Program-made: the position numbers and the translations under genes
The notes under the pieces: model-generated
Told to the model about the DNA's origin: nothing
Databases searched by the model: none
The model's input: the letters and a program-made list of their open reading frames with translations, nothing else
Source of the DNA: Fibrobacter succinogenes subsp. succinogenes S85
GTDB taxonomy: Bacteria; Fibrobacterota; Fibrobacteria; Fibrobacterales; Fibrobacteraceae
Reading direction: 5' to 3'
DNA length: 32,000 bases
Assembly: GCF_000146505.1 (NCBI RefSeq)
Contig: NC_017448.1
Coordinates: 780,001-812,000, forward strand
Part shown: positions 16,378 to 25,405 of the stretch, in pieces
Layout of the letters: the number at the start of each line of letters is the position of its first letter
Numbering within the stretch: position 1 is the stretch's first letter

Positions 16378-16799
16378 ATGTCCCGTTCCGGTTCCGGAAA
16401 ATTCGCAGTTCGCCCTGACGCAGAAATAACGGTCTGAAATTCTAAATTTCCAAGATACTCAAAAGCGATCGAAAGGCCGCCTTTTTTCCAAAAAAAAGAT
16501 TTTTGAAAGTTTTCAACCCCACTGAGCCAGTAAATGATTTATATTTGTCCCGTATGAAAGTTTTTGGTAACATGGAAACGCTTTCCAATACGGCATCCGA
16601 CCTTAAGGAGCCGTTAAACCTGTTACCTCCCCCCAGCGAAAATTCTAGTTTACAAAACAAGGCTGCTAGCGAAAACACCTCCATCGGCCTGTTCGACGTG
16701 CATGTGTACATGGGGCAGTATTTCGACGATTACTATACGCCGACTTCCACAGGAATAGCAAATTAAGCCAAACAATCAAAAAAAAGATCACATACTTTT

Positions 16800-17612
16800 A
16801 TGGCCATCTTCTTAAACGACATATTAAAAATTGAAAATTTCGCAGATGTGAGAATTCGTTTTAATCTGCAAATGAATGGAAATTACAACCCTATTGATGC
16901 ATTCGATAAAAACAACCTCAAAAAATACATAGATGGACATTATTGGAATTATCCCCAAAGAAAATCTTTTAAACTTAATCAAAGGACGCTGGGCTTTATC
17001 CCCTACGACCGTAAAGATAATACATGGCTTTTATTCCATGCGGGCAAGGTGATTAAGGATTTAAACATACTCAACGGCGTAGGATACGACTATAGCGATA
17101 TTGAAGAATTTTCAAAATACTGCGGTCGTTTAATCATCAGATATAAAAACAAAAGTCGAAATCCCATCTTTTACGCCGAGACCTGTATAAACGATTGTGA
17201 AGTTGTTGAAATATTGCCAGATATATATGATGACGATGTTTTCCCTGGTTATGAGAACGTGAATATTTCTTGGGAAAAGCTGTCCCGTGTTATAAGTAAA
17301 GAGTCATGGAAAACAGCTCTTCAAAATCAAAAGGGCGTTTATTTGATTACTGATAAAAAAACGGGAAAAATGTATGTAGGGTCTGCGTATGGCGAAAACA
17401 TGCTTTTAGGTCGATGGACAAATTATGCAGAAAATTGTCATGGTGGAAACGTTGATTTCAAAAAACTTAAACCCAATTATATAAAGTCTAATTTTCAATA
17501 CACTATTTTGGAAATATTTAAATCGACTACTGCTGACGAAGTAATTATAAATCGAGAATCTTGGTGGAAAAACGTTCTTATGACAAGAGATTTCGGTTAT
17601 AATAACAATTGA
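16800..17612 (+). CDS. GIY-YIG nuclease domain protein with an uncharacterised ~170-aa N-terminal domain
   Basis: The C-terminal region GVYLITDKKTGKMYVGSAYGENMLLGRWTNY ... NRESWWK matches GIY-(10 aa)-YVG plus the conserved Arg and Glu. I recognise no motif in the N-terminal half. The gene is visibly AT-rich. Confidence 0.8.
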   Translation: MAIFLNDILKIENFADVRIRFNLQMNGNYNPIDAFDKNNLKKYIDGHYWNYPQRKSFKLNQRTLGFIPYDRKDNTWLLFHAGKVIKDLNILNGVGYDYSDIEEFSKYCGRLIIRYKNKSRNPIFYAETCINDCEVVEILPDIYDDDVFPGYENVNISWEKLSRVISKESWKTALQNQKGVYLITDKKTGKMYVGSAYGENMLLGRWTNYAENCHGGNVDFKKLKPNYIKSNFQYTILEIFKSTTADEVIINRESWWKNVLMTRDFGYNNN

Positions 17613-17654
17613 TTTTTAGTCTGTAATTTTCAACTTTTTAACAAAGGAAAATGA

Positions 17655-18680
17655 ATGGCTCTTTTTTGTAGAAAATGTGGAGAAGAAATAGGCCCCATTG
17701 ATTGTCAGATACATAATAGTTTATGTCATAACTGTTATAGAGAACAAAAAAAAGCTGAAGAGCATAGGGAACGCCTAGAGGAACTCAGAGAAGAAGAAGT
17801 CGAATACCAACGTCAGGCAGCTCGCGATGCCGAAGAAGCTAGACGCATTGCTGGCCTAACCACATTTACGTGTTGCCATTGCCAGGGAACATTTAATGAA
17901 GAACGAGGATATTCCGCGGTCGAATCCCCTATCGGCAAACCCGTTTGCAACAAATGCTTTGAACTGCTAAAAAAGTGCATTGATTGTAATCAGTACTTTT
18001 GGAAAAACGATCCTAGATCAACACCAATTCGCCTGATAGAAAAAGAATATTATAGAACAAAAACTTTTTTTGACGAGCCAGTCATATATGTAAAAGATAG
18101 AAACGACTATGTTTGTGACAATTGCGCTTCAACAGCTAAATATGAATCGTTCTTTGAAGAACAAAAAAAGCTGAAACAAGAATACGACACCCAAGAACGT
18201 ATCCGACGAGAAAAAGAAGCTGCAGAAAGAGCGGAACGAGAGCGCAAAGAAGCGGAAGCTGCTGAACAAGCTCGTATAAAAGCAGAACGAGAAAAAGAAG
18301 CCTACGAAGCAGAACGAAGGGAACGAGAGGAGGAAGAACATCAGAAAGCCGTTTTATTTAATGTCATTTTTGGAATCATTTTTACACTATTGTCAGCATA
18401 TGTATGCTACTCACTCATGTCCAACGTAGGCCTAATACTAGGTATAATATTAGGCATAGGTGTAACAACAATACGTTTAATTCAGCTATCACAAAATTTC
18501 GGAGACTTCCTAGTGAGAGTAGCCGTATGTATTGTGGGAAGTGCGGTTGTTTGCTGGTTGTTTGGACTCTTTTACGGGTTTGCTTGCTGGTTGTTTGGAT
18601 TTACAGATATTTCCGGAACAACTCTTTCTATAATTTGGCTAATACTGACACTAGTGTCAGTATTTCTGCTTAACAGTTAA
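17655..18680 (+). CDS. Multi-zinc-ribbon, coiled-coil, C-terminally 4-TM membrane protein (hypothetical)
   Basis: CxxC pairs at CRKC/CHNC, CCHC/CNKC, CIDC and CDNC. There are two E/R/K/A-rich predicted coiled coils (EEHRERLEELREEE...; RREKEAAERAERERKEAEAAEQARIKAEREKE). About 4 hydrophobic helices follow over the last ~110 aa. The gene starts 42 nt after the GIY-YIG gene on the same strand. Confidence 0.8.
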   Translation: MALFCRKCGEEIGPIDCQIHNSLCHNCYREQKKAEEHRERLEELREEEVEYQRQAARDAEEARRIAGLTTFTCCHCQGTFNEERGYSAVESPIGKPVCNKCFELLKKCIDCNQYFWKNDPRSTPIRLIEKEYYRTKTFFDEPVIYVKDRNDYVCDNCASTAKYESFFEEQKKLKQEYDTQERIRREKEAAERAERERKEAEAAEQARIKAEREKEAYEAERREREEEEHQKAVLFNVIFGIIFTLLSAYVCYSLMSNVGLILGIILGIGVTTIRLIQLSQNFGDFLVRVAVCIVGSAVVCWLFGLFYGFACWLFGFTDISGTTLSIIWLILTLVSVFLLNS

Positions 18681-18740
18681 TTACAAAGAAAGCACTTACC
18701 AAGAAAAAGTCAAAAGACATTAAGAAAACTGATAACAATA

Positions 18741-18764
18741 AAAGCCTCGCTTACGCGAGGCTTT
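18741..18764. terminator. Bidirectional terminator hairpin between convergent genes
   Basis: AAAGCCTCGC-TTAC-GCGAGGCTTT, with T-rich sequence following on both strands. Confidence 0.75.
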
Positions 18765-18807
18765 GCTATTTTCAACAAATCGGGAAAAACGACTTTTATT
18801 CGCACAC

Positions 18808-19484
18808 TTATTTCACAACAACGTTCGCAACGCCATAATGCCCCGCATTACGCACAACAACTAGGTAATGCCCTGCATGGACACCTGTTGAAAAGCGAAC
18901 CGTATTTGATGTTGTATGGATTTTTTCGACAACGGTTCCAATCGCAGAAACAAGGCTAACTTCGGTCACTCCGCGATTAGCAGGCGCAATGTTCGAGATG
19001 TCAATAACCTTGCCTTGCACTCTCACTTGCGGCACAGCGTCTTTAGCCCATCGCGCAACTTTTCGAACATTGGTCGTCGAATCTTGTTTTGAGCCGCCAG
19101 TATTGCTAGAATTCCCCGCAGCATACAGCGGAGCCAGAGCCTCCGCCCACAGGTGATGCATCGCCTGACCACCGCCTTCAGAATTCGGATGGACACCATC
19201 GCTTCCGAGGAGTTCCTGATGTTCGCGGAAATAGCTATAAAAGTCAGGGCCCTTCGGCAATTTATTGTCAAGAGCTTTTTAGGGCCCTCGCCCACCATCA
19301 ACACAATTTCCTTGGCATTGCTACTTTTCCAGTTCGTCAAATAGCCATCGGTCAAGTAATCCGTCGTTGTAGATTCCGTATGCGCCGGGATTCCGCCAGA
19401 AACAAGCTTGTTCGGGGTAATGCCATAAGCAAGCCCCATACCGCATGCGACCGCTACAGTCGCAAAGCTTTTAAAAGAAAACAT
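18808..19484 (-). pseudogene. Secreted SGNH/GDSL-type esterase with C-terminal sorting-domain-like tail, split by a frameshift at a homopolymer
   Basis: The signal peptide is MFSFKSFATVAVACGMGLAYG. The N-terminal frame ends ...LMVGEGPKK, and the second frame continues ALDNKLPKGPDFYSYF...GSDGVHPNSEGG (SGNH block V). Adding one A to the A5 run (T5 on plus at 19276-19280) fuses the frames. The length is 677 nt (3n+2). SGNH blocks I-III are not evident. Confidence 0.55.
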
Positions 19485-19525
19485 TCCAACACACTCCAAT
19501 AATAAAACTACACCAAAAATAACAA

Positions 19526-20227
19526 TCAATTTTTATTATACAAGAAATTAACGACTCTGCCCTGAATATTTTGGCGAACGATATAGTGCCCCTGCGGTAA
19601 ATTAGACGTCGAAGTTTCCATATAATTGCCATTCATATCGAAAATTTTCACGGCCTCGGAATTTCCACGCAAGCGGAGTTTTTCAACAATCCGCGTCGTA
19701 CTTGATTCCGGTGTATCTGAAGGATCCGTCACAGTTGACTCGTCTGCAGCGCCCTTTTCCACAAGCACTTCAACGCGGCCCGTATATTCAGTTTTATCGT
19801 CGCCTTTGACTATGTACTTGAACGAAGCCAAGCCTTTAAAATTTGCCTTCGGCGTAAAGCGAGCCGTGTAGCCATCTGCAAGCAATTCAACCGTTCCATT
19901 CTCTGCAGCAGATACGCTGTAAGTCGGTTTGACCGACTGGAATCCACACGTAATAGTACGCAAGTCAAAATTGCGTGAAGATTCGTCCGTAATGTGCATA
20001 TGCGAAGCCCCGAGCCAGTTGATGTACTTTTCGATACGCACATAACCATCGCTTTCCTTGGTCATTGCGTCATCTTTATTGACATCGTAGCCCATAGCTT
20101 CTTCAAAGTAATCGGGCATGCCGTCCTTATCGGAATCCTTCGCGGCAGTCCCTGCAATCACTTCGCCCCAGCCGTTGTTCGTTTTGATGCCCATGTCGGC
20201 AACGCTTTTTACGAGTGCGCCCGCACA
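19526..20227 (-). pseudogene. C-terminal fragment of a secreted carbohydrate-active enzyme (pectate-lyase-like tail + beta-sandwich + C-terminal sorting domain)
   Basis: It contains DSDKDGMPDYFEEAMGYDVNKDD...GYVRIEKYINWL, then an Ig-like segment and a terminal ...VKIFDMNGNYMETSTSNLPQGHYIVRQN sorting-type tail. The frame is open only from 20227, there is no catalytic domain or signal peptide, and it abuts another truncated gene. Confidence 0.5.
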
Positions 20228-20595
20228 TCACCGCCGAAGAAGCGAAAAAGTCGGTGCAGTTGCTCGAAGAATGCGAACTGATTAAAAAAGATAAAAGCGG
20301 AAAATACGTGCTGACGGAGAATTCCATCACCACGGGTGACCGCACGTCGAAACTCGCGCTCCGCGGCTACCACCAGCATTGCCTAAAGCTCGCCGCCGAT
20401 TCCATCGACCGCGACCCGCCCGGCAGCCGCCACATTTCAGGACTCACGCTCGGCATCAGCCAAGAAGGCTACGAACGCATCGTGGAACGCATCAACGCCT
20501 TCCGCAAGGAAATCGCGCTCATCGCCGAAGAAGACCAAAATAGCGACAAAGTCTTTCAGCTAGAGTTTGCGATGTTCCCCGTCGGCGGGAAGTAA
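20215..20595 (+). pseudogene. 5'-truncated TIGR02147/DUF4423-family gene (about the C-terminal 125 aa only)
   Basis: ITAEEAKKSVQLLEECELIKKDKSGKYVLTE...ISGLTLGISQEGYERIVERINAFRKEI...KVFQLEFAMFPV matches the C-terminal half of this ~270-aa family as I recall it. The N-terminal HTH half is absent, and that space is occupied by the opposing fragment. Confidence 0.55.
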
Positions 20596-20611
20596 AGATT
20601 ACTTCGCAACG
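20542..20611 (+). repeat. Direct repeat copy A (3' end of the TIGR02147 fragment plus downstream flank)
   Basis: AGCGACAAAGTCTTTCAGCTAGAGTTTGCGATGTTCCCCGTCGGCGGGAAGTAAAGATTACTTCGCAACG. Over the first 55 nt, 51 positions match copy B by my hand alignment. Confidence 0.85.
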
Positions 20612-20688
20612 GAATAAAAAAAACAGCTTCTGCAGTGACAAATTGCAAGCCCAATTTTTACTAGCGAATATAAGTTTTTTTCCTAAAT

Positions 20689-21426
20689 TCACCAATTTGT
20701 GCAAAGCCATTCTTTAAAAAAGTCACAAGATCTTTTTCCTTCAGCTTTAGCATATTTTTCCATTGTAATAAACCAGCACGGCTCAGATGGATGATTTGTA
20801 TAAATGTAATCAATATTTTTTCCTTTAGTCCAGTCCCAAAAATCTTGTTTAAAACAACGCCAATAGTCTCCAGGATATCTAGAATTTCTTTTTCCCTTAT
20901 CATCGAAAACACCTTCAACACAATCCTTAACCAACCTACTCATAAAAACGATGAGATTTGGTTTAAGAATACCTATAACATCGACCAAATTTTTGATAGC
21001 ATATTCTCTATCATCTTTTTCTCCTCCATGTTTACTCCAAAATTTCTGCATATTTTGTTCACTTTCATCTGCTGGGCGTAAAAAATAATTGTAAAACGCA
21101 ACTGATTTCCATGCATCCCTTTTTCCTGTAGCCAAATCCATTGTTTCTTGAACACGGTTACAAAATGTTGTATTACGCCATACGCCCCAAGTTTTACGCG
21201 TAGCGCAATTATTTTCTTCTTTAGAATTATGAATCACTGTTGGATTCATATACCATGTTGAAACATCGTGATGAACAATTGTACCATCAGGCATATAATG
21301 GCTATCTCCAACCAACAAGAGTTTTTTATGCTTACTCAAATCGTAATCATCTCCAACAAAAGGAAGCATGTACGCGTGATTCTTGTAAAAAGGCAGCTTT
21401 AATAAGTCATTATCATATTTGGACAT
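20689..21426 (-). CDS. Hypothetical protein with uracil-DNA-glycosylase-superfamily-like motifs
   Basis: A 245-aa AT-rich ORF. KLLLVGDSHYMPDG resembles UDG motif A (GQDPY/GEAPG position), and YIYTNHPSEPCWF resembles motif B (HPSP). The fold assignment is tentative. Confidence 0.65.
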   Translation of the reverse strand: MSKYDNDLLKLPFYKNHAYMLPFVGDDYDLSKHKKLLLVGDSHYMPDGTIVHHDVSTWYMNPTVIHNSKEENNCATRKTWGVWRNTTFCNRVQETMDLATGKRDAWKSVAFYNYFLRPADESEQNMQKFWSKHGGEKDDREYAIKNLVDVIGILKPNLIVFMSRLVKDCVEGVFDDKGKRNSRYPGDYWRCFKQDFWDWTKGKNIDYIYTNHPSEPCWFITMEKYAKAEGKRSCDFFKEWLCTNW

Positions 21427-21558
21427 TGTTACTCCTTGACAAAAGATTTTATAGAAAAACCACTATCGACTAAAAATAACATAAAAAGACATGGAAAAAG
21501 CCTTATACACTTTGCCATAAATGTCTCATCGAAGCAGCAGAATAATCAAATTCGCAGC

Positions 21559-21588
21559 GGAAATAAAAAGAGCCCGCTTCTGTGCGGG
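21559..21588 (-). terminator. Terminator-like hairpin upstream of the cassette gene (minus-strand sense)
   Basis: The minus strand reads CCCGC-ACAGAA-GCGGG followed by CTCTTTTTATTT. It would block read-through from ilvC into the 20689-21426 gene. Confidence 0.5.
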
Positions 21589-21664
21589 GGCAAACTACAG
21601 ATTCAATTTTCACTATAAGCAAGTATAGCAAGGCCGCAGACCCCGAAGCTGTACATACTAGTAC

Positions 21665-21731
21665 AGCGACAAAGTCTTTCAGCTAGAGTTCGCGATGGTT
21701 CCCGTCGGTGGGAAGTAAATTACTGCGAACG
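21665..21731 (+). repeat. Direct repeat copy B: orphan 3' remnant of a TIGR02147-type gene (encodes ...SDKVFQLEFAMVPVGGK*)
   Basis: AGCGACAAAGTCTTTCAGCTAGAGTTCGCGATGGTTCCCGTCGGTGGGAAGTAAATTACTGCGAACG. An in-frame TAG lies one codon upstream (21659-21661), so it is only a remnant. Confidence 0.85.
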
Positions 21732-21809
21732 ACCGCCCCAAACGCGACAGGAAGCCGCCACAAACGCAACAAAAAGCTGCGAGAAAATCATTATCGCATA
21801 AATGCACAA

Positions 21810-21829
21810 AGCCCGCCTTTCGGCGGGCT
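21810..21829 (-). terminator. Terminator hairpin downstream of ilvC
   Basis: AGCCCGCC-TTTC-GGCGGGCT. On the minus strand it is followed by TTGTGCATTTAT. Confidence 0.55.
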
Positions 21830-21893
21830 GTTGTGTTGCGAAAGTTGGATAAGCGAGCTTAGACAACTTTCATCTCGCTAAGCGGAACCGAGG

Positions 21894-23372
21894 TTACACG
21901 ACGCGGGTCATGCCGCTCATGCGGTCACGCAGCCAAGCACCGACTTCTTCCACCGGATGTTGACGGATGTTCTTGTTAACCTTGATGAGTTCTTCGTTAT
22001 CGACAGCGTTGGTATTGCCTTCGTTGAAGATATCGCCAATGTCGCCCTTCTTGACTTCGTTCTTCATGAAGTCAGCGAGGAGAGGAACGCACTTGTTAGC
22101 AAAGAGGTAGCAGCCGTATTCTGCGGTATCGCTGATGACGCGGTTCATTTCGAACAGCTTCTTACGAGCGATGAGGTTTGCAATGAGCGGAGTTTCGTGG
22201 AGGGATTCGTAGTAAGCGCTCATCGGCTTGATGCCCACAGAGCACATGGTTTCGAATGCGAGTTCCACACCGGCCTTGATCATAGCGGTCATGAGAACGC
22301 CACGGTCGAAGTATTCCTGTTCGGTAATCTGCTTGTCAGTTGCGGCAACCTTTTCGAATTCGAGTTCGCCGGTTTCGCCACGCCACTTGAGGAGGTCCTT
22401 GTCGCCAGCTTCCCAGTCGACCATCATCGTGCTGGAGAACTTGCCAGAGATGATGTTGTCCTGATGTTCCTGGTAGAGCGGCTTCATGATCTTCTTCATC
22501 TTTTCAGCAAGTTCCGTTGCGCGGATCTTAGCCGGGTTGGAGAGACGGTCCATCATGTTCGTGATACCACCATGTTTGAGGGCTTCGGAAATCGTTTCCC
22601 AGCCGTACTGGAGGAGCTTCACAGCGTAAGCCTTATCGATACCGAATTCCTTCACCATCTTGTCGTAGCAAAGGATCGTACCGGTCTGGAGCATACCGCA
22701 AAGGATGGTCTGTTCGCCCATGAGGTCAGACTTCACTTCGGCGACGAAAGAGCTTTCGAGAACGCCCGGACGGTCAGCGTGGAGACCAGCAGCGTAAGCC
22801 TTGGCATAGTCCCAGCCCTTGCCTTCAGGGTCGTTTTCCGGGTGGACAGCGATAAGGCACGGCATGCCGAAACCACGGAGGTATTCAGAACGAACTTCGG
22901 AACCCGGTCCCTTCGGAGCGACCATGATCACAGTGATGTCCTTGCGGATTTCCTGGCCTTCTTCGACGATGTTGAAGCCATGGCTGTAAGAAAGAGCTGC
23001 GCCCTTCTTCATGAGCTTCATGATAGCCGGGATCACGTTGTGGTGCTGCTTATCCGGTGTGAGGTTGCAAACGAGGTCTGCATCCGGAATCATTTCTTCA
23101 TAAGTACCGACCTTGAAGCCGTTTTCAGTAGCGTTCTTCCAGGACTGGCGCTTCTGTTCGATGGCTTCCTTGCGGAGCGTGTAGGAAACATCCAAACCGC
23201 TATCGCGAAGGTCGAGACCCTGATGGAGACCCTGAGCACCGCAACCGACGAACACAATCTTCTTACCCTTGAGGGCTTCAACACCACGGCTGAATTCAGA
23301 ATGTTCCATGAAACGGCAGTGGCCAATTTCTTCGAGTTGGCGACGCATAGGGATAGAGTTGAAATAATTCAT
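21894..23372 (-). CDS. ilvC: Ketol-acid reductoisomerase, long (class II) form
   Basis: A 492-aa protein collinear with E. coli IlvC by eye: NYFN...[58 protein letters not shown] and NLTPDKQH. Confidence 0.95.
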
Positions 23373-23471
23373 TTTTTTGAACCTCTGTTAAATAAAATGT
23401 TCCAAGCGGAAAGATAGCAAAGTAAAGTGGAAAAAGTTACTAGTTTCCATCCACTAATTACTAGAAAACGT

Positions 23472-23565
23472 AAAAAAAAGGGACTGGAGGGGGAAGCCTC
23501 CCCCTGATTGCAGCCCCGGCACGCCGGGTCTTCCATCACCCCTACTCCTAGGGGCTCCGCCCCTA
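23472..23565 (-). promoter_or_regulatory. GC-rich multi-hairpin block in the spacer upstream of ilvC (terminator of the upstream gene and/or ilvC leader structure)
   Basis: Read on the plus strand: AGGGGGA-AGCC-TCCCCCT (23488-23505), preceded by A8 at 23472-23479 (T8 on the minus strand); CCCGG-CACG-CCGGG (23515-23528); CCCCTA-CTCC-TAGGGG (23539-23554), which overlaps TAGGGGC-TCC-GCCCCTA (23549-23565). Confidence 0.45.
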
Positions 23566-23648
23566 ACACCCCGGATTCAGCTACAAGAGTTTCTTTTTGC
23601 ACAAACAAATTAAATCAAATTCACGCAAACAAGGCCTAGATTCACGTT

Positions 23649-25332
23649 TTAATCCTTGAGACAACGAACTAAAAACTTTTCGTATTTGTTGAAGTTTAGC
23701 AAGCCCGCGTTTTCAGTTTCGGAAAACAGAATCATGCTGTATGCGGTTGAATAATTGGGTTCCGTAGAACTCCAGAAGTGCGTGCTGATAACATCAATAG
23801 GCAAAGCACTGAACCCGAAGGAATCTTCATTACAGTTATAACACCAGGCGCTCTTGGACTTGAGTTTGGGACCGGCCGTAGTCGCCCCCCCCAACTGTAG
23901 TAAGTAGGACTTCCCATTCGTCTTTATTCGGCAGGTGCCAACCACTGGGGCAAATTCCCTGCACATGGCCCGTAAAGTCGCACATTTTATCGTAACCGCA
24001 GTTCATTGGATTGATAGTATCGTTCGCCAATTTCACCGAATCAATAGCAGCAGCCCAAGTGTAAAGGCGACCTCCCACATGGCAATACTTCGCCTTATTG
24101 TCATAGCACCAGCTAGAGGAATCGCTAGTGTTGCTGTAGAATTTATATGGAACACGTGTGTAAGCATAATTGAGATTCTGTGCCATCCAAGTTTGCGAGC
24201 CAATGACAACGGTCTTGTATGTTTGACCATCACGCTCATCAGTCATGGAGCCATAGGTAACATCTGGATTCAGGCGAGCATACTTGGGTACATTCCAACT
24301 CCAACCATTGTCCCTGAGGCAACGAACAGAAAAGCCGTCATTTTTATAGTAGTCATACAGATGCATTTCCCCGCTGTTAGCGTCCAAATACACAAAACAC
24401 ACGCCGTTCATACAGCCCTTGTCACACAGCTCACTTCCACCACAGGACTCAGTAGAACTCCAGAATACCGTGAAGTCATTACTGCTTACAAAGTAATCGC
24501 CTCTACTATTCCATAAGCCAACAGGCAAAGCACTGAACCCGAAGGAGTCATCGCCGTTACCATCTTTAGCCCATCCGCTTTGAGACTTGAACCCGATATC
24601 TGCTAAACGTTTGGAACTAAACCGATCGAACAGTCTTCTCCATTCATCCATACTCGGTAGGTGCCAGCCCTCGGGACAAATGCCACGAATCATGTTTCCA
24701 AGGCCACAATACTTGTCGATCCCGCAGTCCAGTGGGTCCAAGCTATCATTAGCCAATTTCACCGAATCGATAGCAGCAGCCCAAGTGTAAAAGCGACCTC
24801 CTACATTGCAGTTTTTCGCCACATTTTTATAGCACCGATTATTGCCCTTAAGACTTGGAGTTGCGGAGCTGTCTGCATAGTTTAGATTCTCCGCCATCCA
24901 CGTTTCAGAATACGGATGTCCTTTCGGGGCAATAGTCACAATCTTATAAACCTTGCCATCACGAGAATCAATCATAGTATCGTACTGTATTTCGGGATTC
25001 AAGTAAGTTTCTTTAGGCACATCCCAGCTCCAGGCAATCTGGGAACTAGACGATTGCTGAATTGATTCAGAACTACTGCTTGACTTTACAGAACTCGATG
25101 ACGAGGACTTAGCCTTTTCACTGCTAGAAGAATTCTTCTGAACGCTAGAACTCGAAGACTTTACTCGAGATCCTGATGAACTCAGCTTTTCCGACGAACT
25201 AGAACTAATCTTGCTTACCGGTTCATCACCCGCACTAACGGAATTACTATCATCTCCGCCACATGCAGCAAGGAACAACAATAAACAAGAAATAGCAATG
25301 CATTTTTTGCCAATAACAATATCAAAGCTCAT
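23649..25332 (-). pseudogene. FISUMP-domain lipoprotein (Ser-rich linker + three paralogous domains) interrupted by a frameshift in a G8 tract
   Basis: The start is MSFDIVIGKKCIAISCLLLFLAAC (lipobox). There is a long S-rich linker and CPEGWHLPSMDEW and CPSGWHLPNKDEW modules. The frame changes at C8 on plus (23885-23892). With G7 the protein reads ...EWEVLLTTVGGATTAGPKLKSKSAW...FGFSALP...VRCLKD. The length is 1684 nt (3n+1). Confidence 0.75.
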
Positions 25333-25405
25333 AAAATCTTCTAAATTAAAATTACCCCACAAATATAAATTATTTCTTCCAAAATAACGAAAGAATGGTT
25401 TCCCC

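Follow-up and report, generated by a model that had tools for sequence, protein, structure and literature searches.

The pan-genomes of Escherichia coli and Pseudomonas aeruginosa have hot spots for accessory and defence genes between core genes, and homology-facilitated illegitimate recombination (HFIR), together with related duplication by a single crossover, is known from Acinetobacter, S. pneumoniae and P. stutzeri. An E. coli conjugation study built to detect HFIR found that 56 of 60 events were duplications that left the anchor to both sides of the insert, made when a recircularised fragment entered through one crossover, and the 14 sequenced events comprised 109-950 bp of homologous anchor (PMC3240628). 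HFIR was also proposed for the displaced gene ends in T6SS (type VI secretion system) arrays of Vibrio cholerae, and no evidence of an integrase was found there (PMC5361080). Here we analysed a stretch of 32,000 nucleotides from Fibrobacter succinogenes subsp. succinogenes S85 (the window; NC_017448.1, positions 780,001 to 812,000), in which the 3′ end of a TIGR02147 gene stands twice beside ilvC, on either side of an AT-rich segment with a single gene. We consider it probable, with moderate confidence, that this structure is a recombination scar joining two haplotypes of a hypervariable accessory-gene slot, and not a self-contained mobile cassette. S85, the window strain, was compared with loci of its relatives (L012 and the other L-numbers), which were collected through a look-up of the exact ilvC protein and through pattern scans of genome and metagenome collections. 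The locus consists of the following features, given as window positions:

20215-20595, plus strand: 5′-truncated TIGR02147/DUF4423 pseudogene, the last 126 of the 282 codons of the ilvC-adjacent orthologue
20542-20611, plus strand: repeat copy 1, comprising the final 17 codons, stop codon and a tail of about 16 nt (AGATTACTTCGCAACG); the body is L040-like, and the tail is diverged and L044-like
20612-21613: AT-rich foreign segment that holds a terminator and, together with its upstream region, the cargo gene; the bracketed DNA has 32-37% GC, against 50-60% in the flanks
20689-21426, minus strand: cargo gene of 245 aa, the sole open reading frame of the segment; an unnamed family with a predicted fold like that of the uracil-DNA glycosylase (UDG) superfamily
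21573-21588, minus strand: terminator-like hairpin and T-run upstream of the cargo gene
21614-21669, plus strand: segment C, the last 56 nt of the insert, a native Fibrobacter spacer that ends in a GCTGTAC...GTACAGC hairpin
21663-21669, plus strand: microhomology ACAGCGA (7 nt), where segment C joins copy 2
21665-21731, plus strand: repeat copy 2, an isolated relic with 17 codons, the stop codon and the tail ATTACTGCGAACG; the tail, like the spacer that follows, corresponds to that of the single-copy L032
21732-21893, plus strand: native TIGR02147-ilvC spacer, homologous to L013, L032 and L042, with a bidirectional terminator at 21810-21829
21894-23372, minus strand: ilvC (ketol-acid reductoisomerase), with KARI_N and KARI_C, the core gene that anchors the variable slot

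A sequence-only reading of the window had described an AT-rich cassette with one minus-strand gene and a terminator-like hairpin upstream of it, bracketed by imperfect direct repeats, and all of these elements were confirmed. The 55 nt at 20542-20596 recur at 21665-21719, at a spacing of 1123 nt, with 51 of the 55 positions identical (93%). By gapped local alignment the repeat extends to 20542-20611 versus 21665-21731, with two indels 3′ of the stop codon; the similarity thus runs past the stop codon into a tail of about 16 nt, and overall the repeat measures about 57-70 nt and is 7-10% diverged. The peptide ends were also as described, with SDKVFQLEFAMFPVGGK in copy 1 and SDKVFQLEFAMVPVGGK in copy 2, each followed by the stop codon. 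Copy 2 keeps just 17 codons, and a stop codon lies directly 5′ of it. When the 35-nt core of the repeat was searched in degenerate form, exactly two occurrences were found in the window, against an expectation of 0 from 100 shuffles. Moreover, the interval 20501-21760 was reproduced exactly in the reference genome (CP001792.1, GCA_000024665.1) and in nine contigs from other sequencing runs, which rules out an assembly artefact.

The right-hand end of the insert did not behave as the end of a discrete cassette, as the sequence-only reading had supposed, since its last 56 nt are a native ilvC-downstream segment of other strains, and a microhomology of 7 nt links this segment to copy 2. Segment C was 94.6-96.4% identical to the sequence 26-99 nt from the ilvC stop codon in L012, L015 and L031, and its exact 32-nt core was found once per locus, always and only beside ilvC. 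L031 carries a gene-end relic, then the 570-aa gene, a terminator, segment C and ilvC, in this order. S85 has the same order, but with another cargo and with copy 2 wedged between segment C and ilvC. Native segment C reads GTACAGCGA followed by GAGGGTCG, that is, ACAGCGA followed by GAGGG, and the native TIGR02147 gene reads AAAACAGCGA followed by CAAAGTC (also given as AAACAGCGA followed by CAAAG), preceded by AA. At the S85 join, GTACAGCGA is followed by CAAAGTC and then by the rest of copy 2. The stretch common to both parents is therefore ACAGCGA, which is found where segment C ends and again 51 nt 5′ of the TIGR02147 stop codon. An ancient junction between segment C and a TIGR02147 relic was also considered in L012, and was discarded as a supported idea after a shuffle test: an anchored alignment of the gene with what follows segment C in L012 did not outperform random expectation, as 1199 of 2000 shuffles reached at least the score of the real sequence.

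Comparison among relatives showed how variable this interval is. About 20 haplotypes displayed at least five states of the stretch that separates the TIGR02147 stop codon from ilvC. In one state an intact 282-aa TIGR02147 gene is convergent with ilvC and no cargo is present (L014, L017, L019, L029, L039, L027, L028, L036 and L041); a full-length gene convergent with ilvC was also found in L033 and in L035-L044, other than the truncated L040 and the relic-bearing L042. Since so many strains carry this full-length orthologue in convergence with ilvC, the repeat is that orthologue's own end. Another state is the S85-like truncated pseudogene with one gene end and no cargo, found in an isolate (L013, GCA_900177805.1), a metagenome (L040) and a metagenome-assembled genome (L032). 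Each of the S85 intervals 18800-20596 and 21663-23601 can be aligned to L013, where the two alignments share 57 nt, indicating that S85 has 1066 extra nt plus 57 nt that are duplicated; the AT-rich segment 20612-21613 is missing from L013, L040 and L032 alike. These three loci, with a single copy, no cassette and the same truncated pseudogene, provide the polymorphism between occupied and empty sites that the insertion idea called for, and conserved synteny without empty sites, the observation that was to speak against it, is not what the relatives have. A further state comprises other cargos without a second gene end: a GIY_YIG_2 gene with a zinc-ribbon membrane protein (L044 and L037), a small two-gene module (L035, L038 and L043), and a 570-aa gene, which stands beside an intact TIGR02147 gene in L033 and beside a gene-end relic only in L016, L030 and L031. 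YfhO follows almost directly after ilvC in L012 and L015. Two gene-end copies, the last state, were found in S85 only. A scan of the genome collection for the gene end (AARGTNTTYCARYTNGARTTYGCNATG) returned seven Fibrobacter loci with one copy each and none in tandem; the S85 genome is not among these. Not every empty site has the same history: L028, L036 and L041 keep a AATTTCAT remnant corresponding to the sequence around the start codon of the L033 570-aa gene, indicating that they are deletions of the 570-aa cargo and not sites that were never occupied.

We propose that two parental haplotypes were joined at this locus. Haplotype B would have carried the TIGR02147 3′ end, a diverged tail, the AT-rich gene with the UDG fold, the terminator, segment C and ilvC, and haplotype A the TIGR02147 3′ end, a tail, a terminator-bearing spacer and ilvC. 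An illegitimate exchange at ACAGCGA would join haplotypes B and A, and a homologous exchange would complete the event, either in the TIGR02147 fragment on the left or in the spacer and ilvC on the right. Relative to the gene end, the illegitimate join falls on the upstream side in one parent and on the downstream side in the other, which would account for the two copies now present. Such a join could arise from linear DNA by HFIR, or from a fragment that was circularised at the microhomology and whose entry then took one crossover inside the 57-70 nt; the product would be the same by both routes, and also whichever of the two haplotypes was the resident genome. Both kinds of junction expected of an HFIR scar were found, namely few-base microhomology at one junction (ACAGCGA) and extended homology at the other, where S85, L040, L013, L033 and L044 have TIGR02147 fragments of 96-98% identity and ilvC is 94-98.6% identical in DNA across strains. 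The A-type arrangement was found in L013, L040 and L032, and the B-type architecture was found with another cargo in L031. That a parent B with this cargo existed is an inference, as are any direction of transfer and the way in which DNA moved between the strains. The mosaic patterns of similarity among the strains imply that exchange is frequent.

The alleles of the two copies fit such a join. Compared with L040, the body of copy 1 has a single difference in 55 positions, and the T just upstream of it is also common to L040 (AAAATAGCGAC); its tail (AGATTACTTCGCAACGG) is diverged and has lost the G from GCGAAC, as has the L044 tail. Copy 2 carries GTT and GGT variants and has three private substitutions in 55 nt. 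Its tail and the next spacer track L032, whose post-stop tail is TAAATTACCGCGAACGACC and whose spacer is about 86% identical to that of S85. As the S85 and L040 pseudogenes diverge by 1.8%, the three private changes exceed the decay expected after a recent duplication, and copy 2 would better fit a more distant allele that arrived together with its spacer. If the repeats are two alleles of one site, their divergence of 7-10% is explained. The proposal of the sequence-only reading that the DNA entered by recombination into a gene end is close to what the junctions show.

Several results weigh against the joining of two haplotypes. A parent B, with the UDG-fold gene and segment C and without copy 2, was not found, and no relative of the cargo exceeds 49% identity. 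Neither scan, of genomes or of metagenomes, returned the GTT/GGT allele of copy 2, and nor did the protein search: the metagenome scan, which allowed either body allele, gave 10 loci, all TTC/GGC, and the protein search with the 126-aa fragment returned none with the FAMVPVGGK allele. A sliding-window comparison of ilvC showed no clear recombination breakpoint that would set the direction of transfer, only a divergent 3′-terminal 150 nt. A literature search on Fibrobacter competence found nothing relevant on natural DNA uptake or transfer, and one on TIGR02147 in Fibrobacter found nothing useful. Moreover, a clustering of junctions and a match between cargo starts hint at a site preference, which a random illegitimate process does not predict.

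The junctions in question lie 46-78 nt before the TIGR02147 stop codon in four independent cases (L042, S85 copy 2, L016/L030/L031 and L032), and only one junction is deeper, the common 5′ truncation at 378 nt before the stop codon. Ascertainment through the search pattern does not account for the missing relics of intermediate length. On the other side of the stop codon, the unrelated AT-rich cargos of S85 (20611/20612) and of L044/L037 (about 917 on the reverse complement of L044) start 14-20 nt after it, within 1-3 nt of each other. This coincidence, together with the loss of the G from GCGAAC in both tails, could be a hot spot or could be a left junction of common descent. Because of the four clustered junctions and the two unrelated cargos that start so close together, it may be asked whether the last 50-80 nt or so of this orthologue and the first 15-20 nt after its stop codon form a preferred recombination site, at which small AT-rich defence-type genes are swapped with no dedicated recombinase and the gene end persists, even as a relic, as a homology handle; we hold this only as a tentative idea with a small chance of being right.

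Some of the same data can be read in the opposite direction. The tandem arrangement might be the older state, present in the ancestor of S85, L013, L040 and L032, and the single-copy strains would then have lost the cargo through deletion between the 57-70-nt repeats. Excision between the repeats yields exactly the copy seen in L032, with a copy-1-like body and a copy-2-like tail, and deletions dominate the locus, as judged from L032 (between the short repeats D2 described below), from the relics of L016, L030, L031 and L042, and from the start-codon remnant of the 570-aa gene in L028. However, this scenario requires three independent losses or one shared loss, and the tail of L013 and L040 (AAACGCAAGTCAGG) is unlike either S85 tail, so that these two loci are not simple excision products. 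The outgroups with an intact gene (L014, L029 and L027) have a single copy and no cargo. An older tandem state would also change the polarity only and leave the origin of the duplication still unexplained, and we judge it unlikely.

Direct repeats of a gene 3′ end around foreign AT-rich DNA are the classic signature of integrase islands, and a non-autonomous cassette integrated by a recombinase in trans, with the gene end as an attachment site duplicated as attL and attR, would also suit the cargos of S85 and L044 that begin within 1-3 nt of each other 3′ of the stop codon. It is nevertheless an improbable origin in our view. Over about 10 kb to the left and to the right of the S85 locus, the gene table lists no recombinase, integrase or transposase family. 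On its right the insert finishes in segment C joined at microhomology, that is, in native spacer and not in element sequence abutting an attachment core, and the three other slot cargos (L044/L037, L035/L038/L043 and L033/L031/L030/L016) have a single gene end. The cargo family occurs in unrelated contexts without DUF4423, and the repeats offer no difference-free crossover core, with differences at four positions spread over the 55 nt in addition to the tail indels. An integron cassette finds no counterpart here either: no integrase was found within about 10 kb, and the only boundary hairpin belongs to the native segment C. A bracketing by direct repeats of the target would likewise be left by foreign DNA captured at a double-strand break or inserted by a transposition-like event with a long target-site duplication. 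The repeat, however, far exceeds known target-site duplications and is not a short exact one, having 55-70 nt with four substitutions and two indels, and the divergence splits either copy into a native-like and a foreign-like half. No transposase was found, none of the four inverted-repeat pairs in 19000-23500 brackets 20597-21664, and the insert holds the native segment C. We regard this origin as very improbable, and the target duplication that the sequence-only reading had considered goes with it, since a repeat of 57-70 nt with 7-10% divergence and neither transposase nor terminal inverted repeats is not of that kind. The multi-copy nature of TIGR02147, with a second paralogue 6 kb away in L014, would allow copy 2 to be the end of a different decayed paralogue that has always stood beside ilvC. 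Relatives have a single gene end here, which effectively refutes this, and copy 2 is 93-95% identical to the end of the orthologue, with a tail that is the orthologue's own downstream spacer, whereas the 3′ DNA of the neighbouring paralogue is unrelated; the chance that it is correct is negligible.

The gene ends of the family had also been suggested to act in general as landing pads for cassettes. This wider role is not supported. The single other paralogue that was compared, at the DNA level (L014, 6 kb away), ends in VYQLNFQLFPMMKKKD followed by the stop codon and has unrelated 3′ DNA, and at the ilvC-adjacent orthologue the three other cargos of the slot lack a second copy. Nor was a DUF4423 gene found beside the relatives of the cargo gene in the three contexts examined. 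What survives of the landing-pad idea is narrower: at this one orthologue, the downstream spacer is a hot spot for strain-specific genes.

The cargo gene of S85 encodes a 245-aa protein for which Pfam, NCBIfam, PADLOC and PHROG gave no match, nor did the PDB when searched by sequence. The exact protein occurs only in S85-type contigs. We found 29 relatives, the nearest of which are 48-49% identical, and a search of viral contigs returned no relatives of the family. The AlphaFold2 model was confident (pLDDT 91, pTM 0.90), and its best Foldseek matches in the PDB and among viral models all belonged to the UDG superfamily, namely family 4 UDG, UdgX, SMUG1 and TDG, at a Foldseek probability of about 1.0 and with TM scores of 0.42-0.52, which is a distant similarity. 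The protein is thus predicted to have a uracil-DNA-glycosylase-superfamily fold, of distant likeness. The family conserves G40-(D/E)41-S42-H-Y44 and H212-P213-S214, which we take to resemble UDG motifs A (GE.PG-type) and B (HPS). A WCX-domain gene lies near the relatives in two of the three contexts, and is adjacent in one of them; in the third context a McrBC pair stands two genes away, and an SLFN-like helicase was found in one context. The neighbours are thus defence-like, of restriction and regulator type. The predicted fold and these neighbouring genes suggest a DNA glycosylase-like role in defence or in the sensing of DNA modification. The hairpin at 21573-21588 would stop read-through arriving from ilvC, and the cargo gene probably has its own promoter, insulated from such read-through by this upstream terminator.

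On the left flank, the pseudogene at 20215-20595 matched the TIGR02147 profile at positions 148-269 of 272 with 131.5 bits (cut-off 50) and the C-terminal DUF4423 at positions 47-165 of 165 with 92.5 bits (cut-off 30). It is not a full-length member, as intact orthologues have 282 aa. Its closest relative is L040, at 98.2% identity; L033 stands at 96.6%, and most of the other full-length orthologues lie at 87-91%. Two further features lie at this side of the locus:

19526-20194, minus strand: remnant of a Big_7/Big_9 surface-protein gene, with weak Pfam matches to Big_9 and Cadherin_5; 800 aa in L014
20228-20249, plus strand: left copy of the short direct repeat D2, with its partner at 20519-20540 (18 of 22 nt identical)

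An intact divergent pair of the Big and TIGR02147 genes was found in L014, L017 and L019, and the truncation junction of S85 between these two genes is also present in L013, L040 and L032. The deletion that truncated TIGR02147 also removed the 5′ part of the Big gene. In L032 (6477-6491 on its reverse complement), precisely the 291 nt that separate the D2 repeats (TCA[C/T]CGCCGAAGAAG; 15-22 nt) are missing as well, which leaves 25 pseudogene codons, indicating that short-homology events are active at the locus. A metagenomic protein, P0051, represents an S85-type pseudogene fragment with another internal deletion. The protein search, whose match list was dominated by fragments, also returned three apparent fusions with the common junction ADSIDRDPPG. 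In the metagenome scaffold L046, at 391-400, a run of N directly precedes the join between a PilT-like motif (HTNSAA) and TIGR02147 (LAADSIDRD). ADSIDRDPPG resembles a common breakpoint, but L046 is probably a scaffolding chimera made through similar sequence, and L045, another of the three, is a different locus of a different species; the L046 chimera calls for caution when 'fusion' proteins in a protein collection are read.

Variation around ilvC is not confined to the slot with the repeats. A second AT-rich variable slot lies toward YfhO, at 16654-18799. It holds, at 16800-17612 on the plus strand, a gene for a 270-aa GIY-YIG protein that matched UzuA of the Uzume anti-phage system in PADLOC (E 2.5e-57), together with a gene for a 341-aa zinc-ribbon coiled-coil membrane protein (17655-18680). 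L013 has different genes in this slot and L040 is without the UzuA part, and the pairing of GIY-YIG and zinc-ribbon membrane proteins resembles the cargo of L044 and L037 in the ilvC slot. A third variable slot, at 23602-25389 on the far side of ilvC, carries a 572-aa Fib_succ_major (TIGR02145-type) lipoprotein gene in S85, 20 nt instead in L013, and NYN/OST-HTH genes instead in L012 and L015. No flanking repeats were visible at either of these two slots. Within ilvC, most of the differences between strains fell in the 3′-terminal 150 nt (21894-22043), which had 3-19 of them, compared with 0-12 (mostly 0-7) in the other 150-nt blocks, a divergence that would be expected if recombination tracts from the slot often ended there. 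The spacer following the ilvC stop codon carries, at 21861-21882, locus-specific modules AGACAACTTTCNTCYCGCTAAG, which stand in tandem in L014 (11480-12000) with hairpin-forming inserts. These modules were not found elsewhere in the window and had no match in Rfam, and a search of 20000-24000 against Rfam also gave no match.

The scar is a known kind of event and belongs to ordinary pan-genome dynamics; it is no new kind of mobile element. It would offer a natural example of the shuffling of single accessory genes with no recombinase or transposase nearby, in which a gene end provides the homology and a microhomology closes the other side. The hot spot is also compact and well sampled, which makes it a useful place to seek defence-type genes in rumen Fibrobacter, with the UDG-fold family as a candidate.

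Set beside the described systems, the locus shares with integrase islands at the 3′ ends of tRNA or protein genes the AT-rich foreign DNA between imperfect direct repeats of a gene 3′ end, but it has no integrase, its insert ends in native spacer, and other occupants of the site are without repeats. The hot spots of other pan-genomes likewise occupy a fixed spot between core genes, here ilvC and YfhO, and hold different small genes in each strain, including the UzuA match and GIY-YIG genes; the Fibrobacter scale, however, is tiny (single genes, 1-2 kb), and the slot is bounded by pseudogene relics and not by mobile-element ends. In the T6SS, Rhs and CDI arrays of V. cholerae (PMC5361080), too, a gene end serves as the homologous anchor, and incoming modules displace the resident sequence instead of replacing it, leaving relic 3′ ends and cargo in tandem. 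Those toxin-immunity modules are tied in function to the anchor gene, whereas the anchor of S85 is a pseudogene, the cargos are unrelated to it, and a tandem relic is present in only one strain. From the HFIR events described experimentally, the S85 event differs in being inferred from natural strains, in its shorter duplication (57-70 nt) and in a donor that was apparently the other version of the same locus. Like them, it combines a junction within homology with a second one at only a few bases of shared sequence, and non-homologous DNA is placed beside the anchor.

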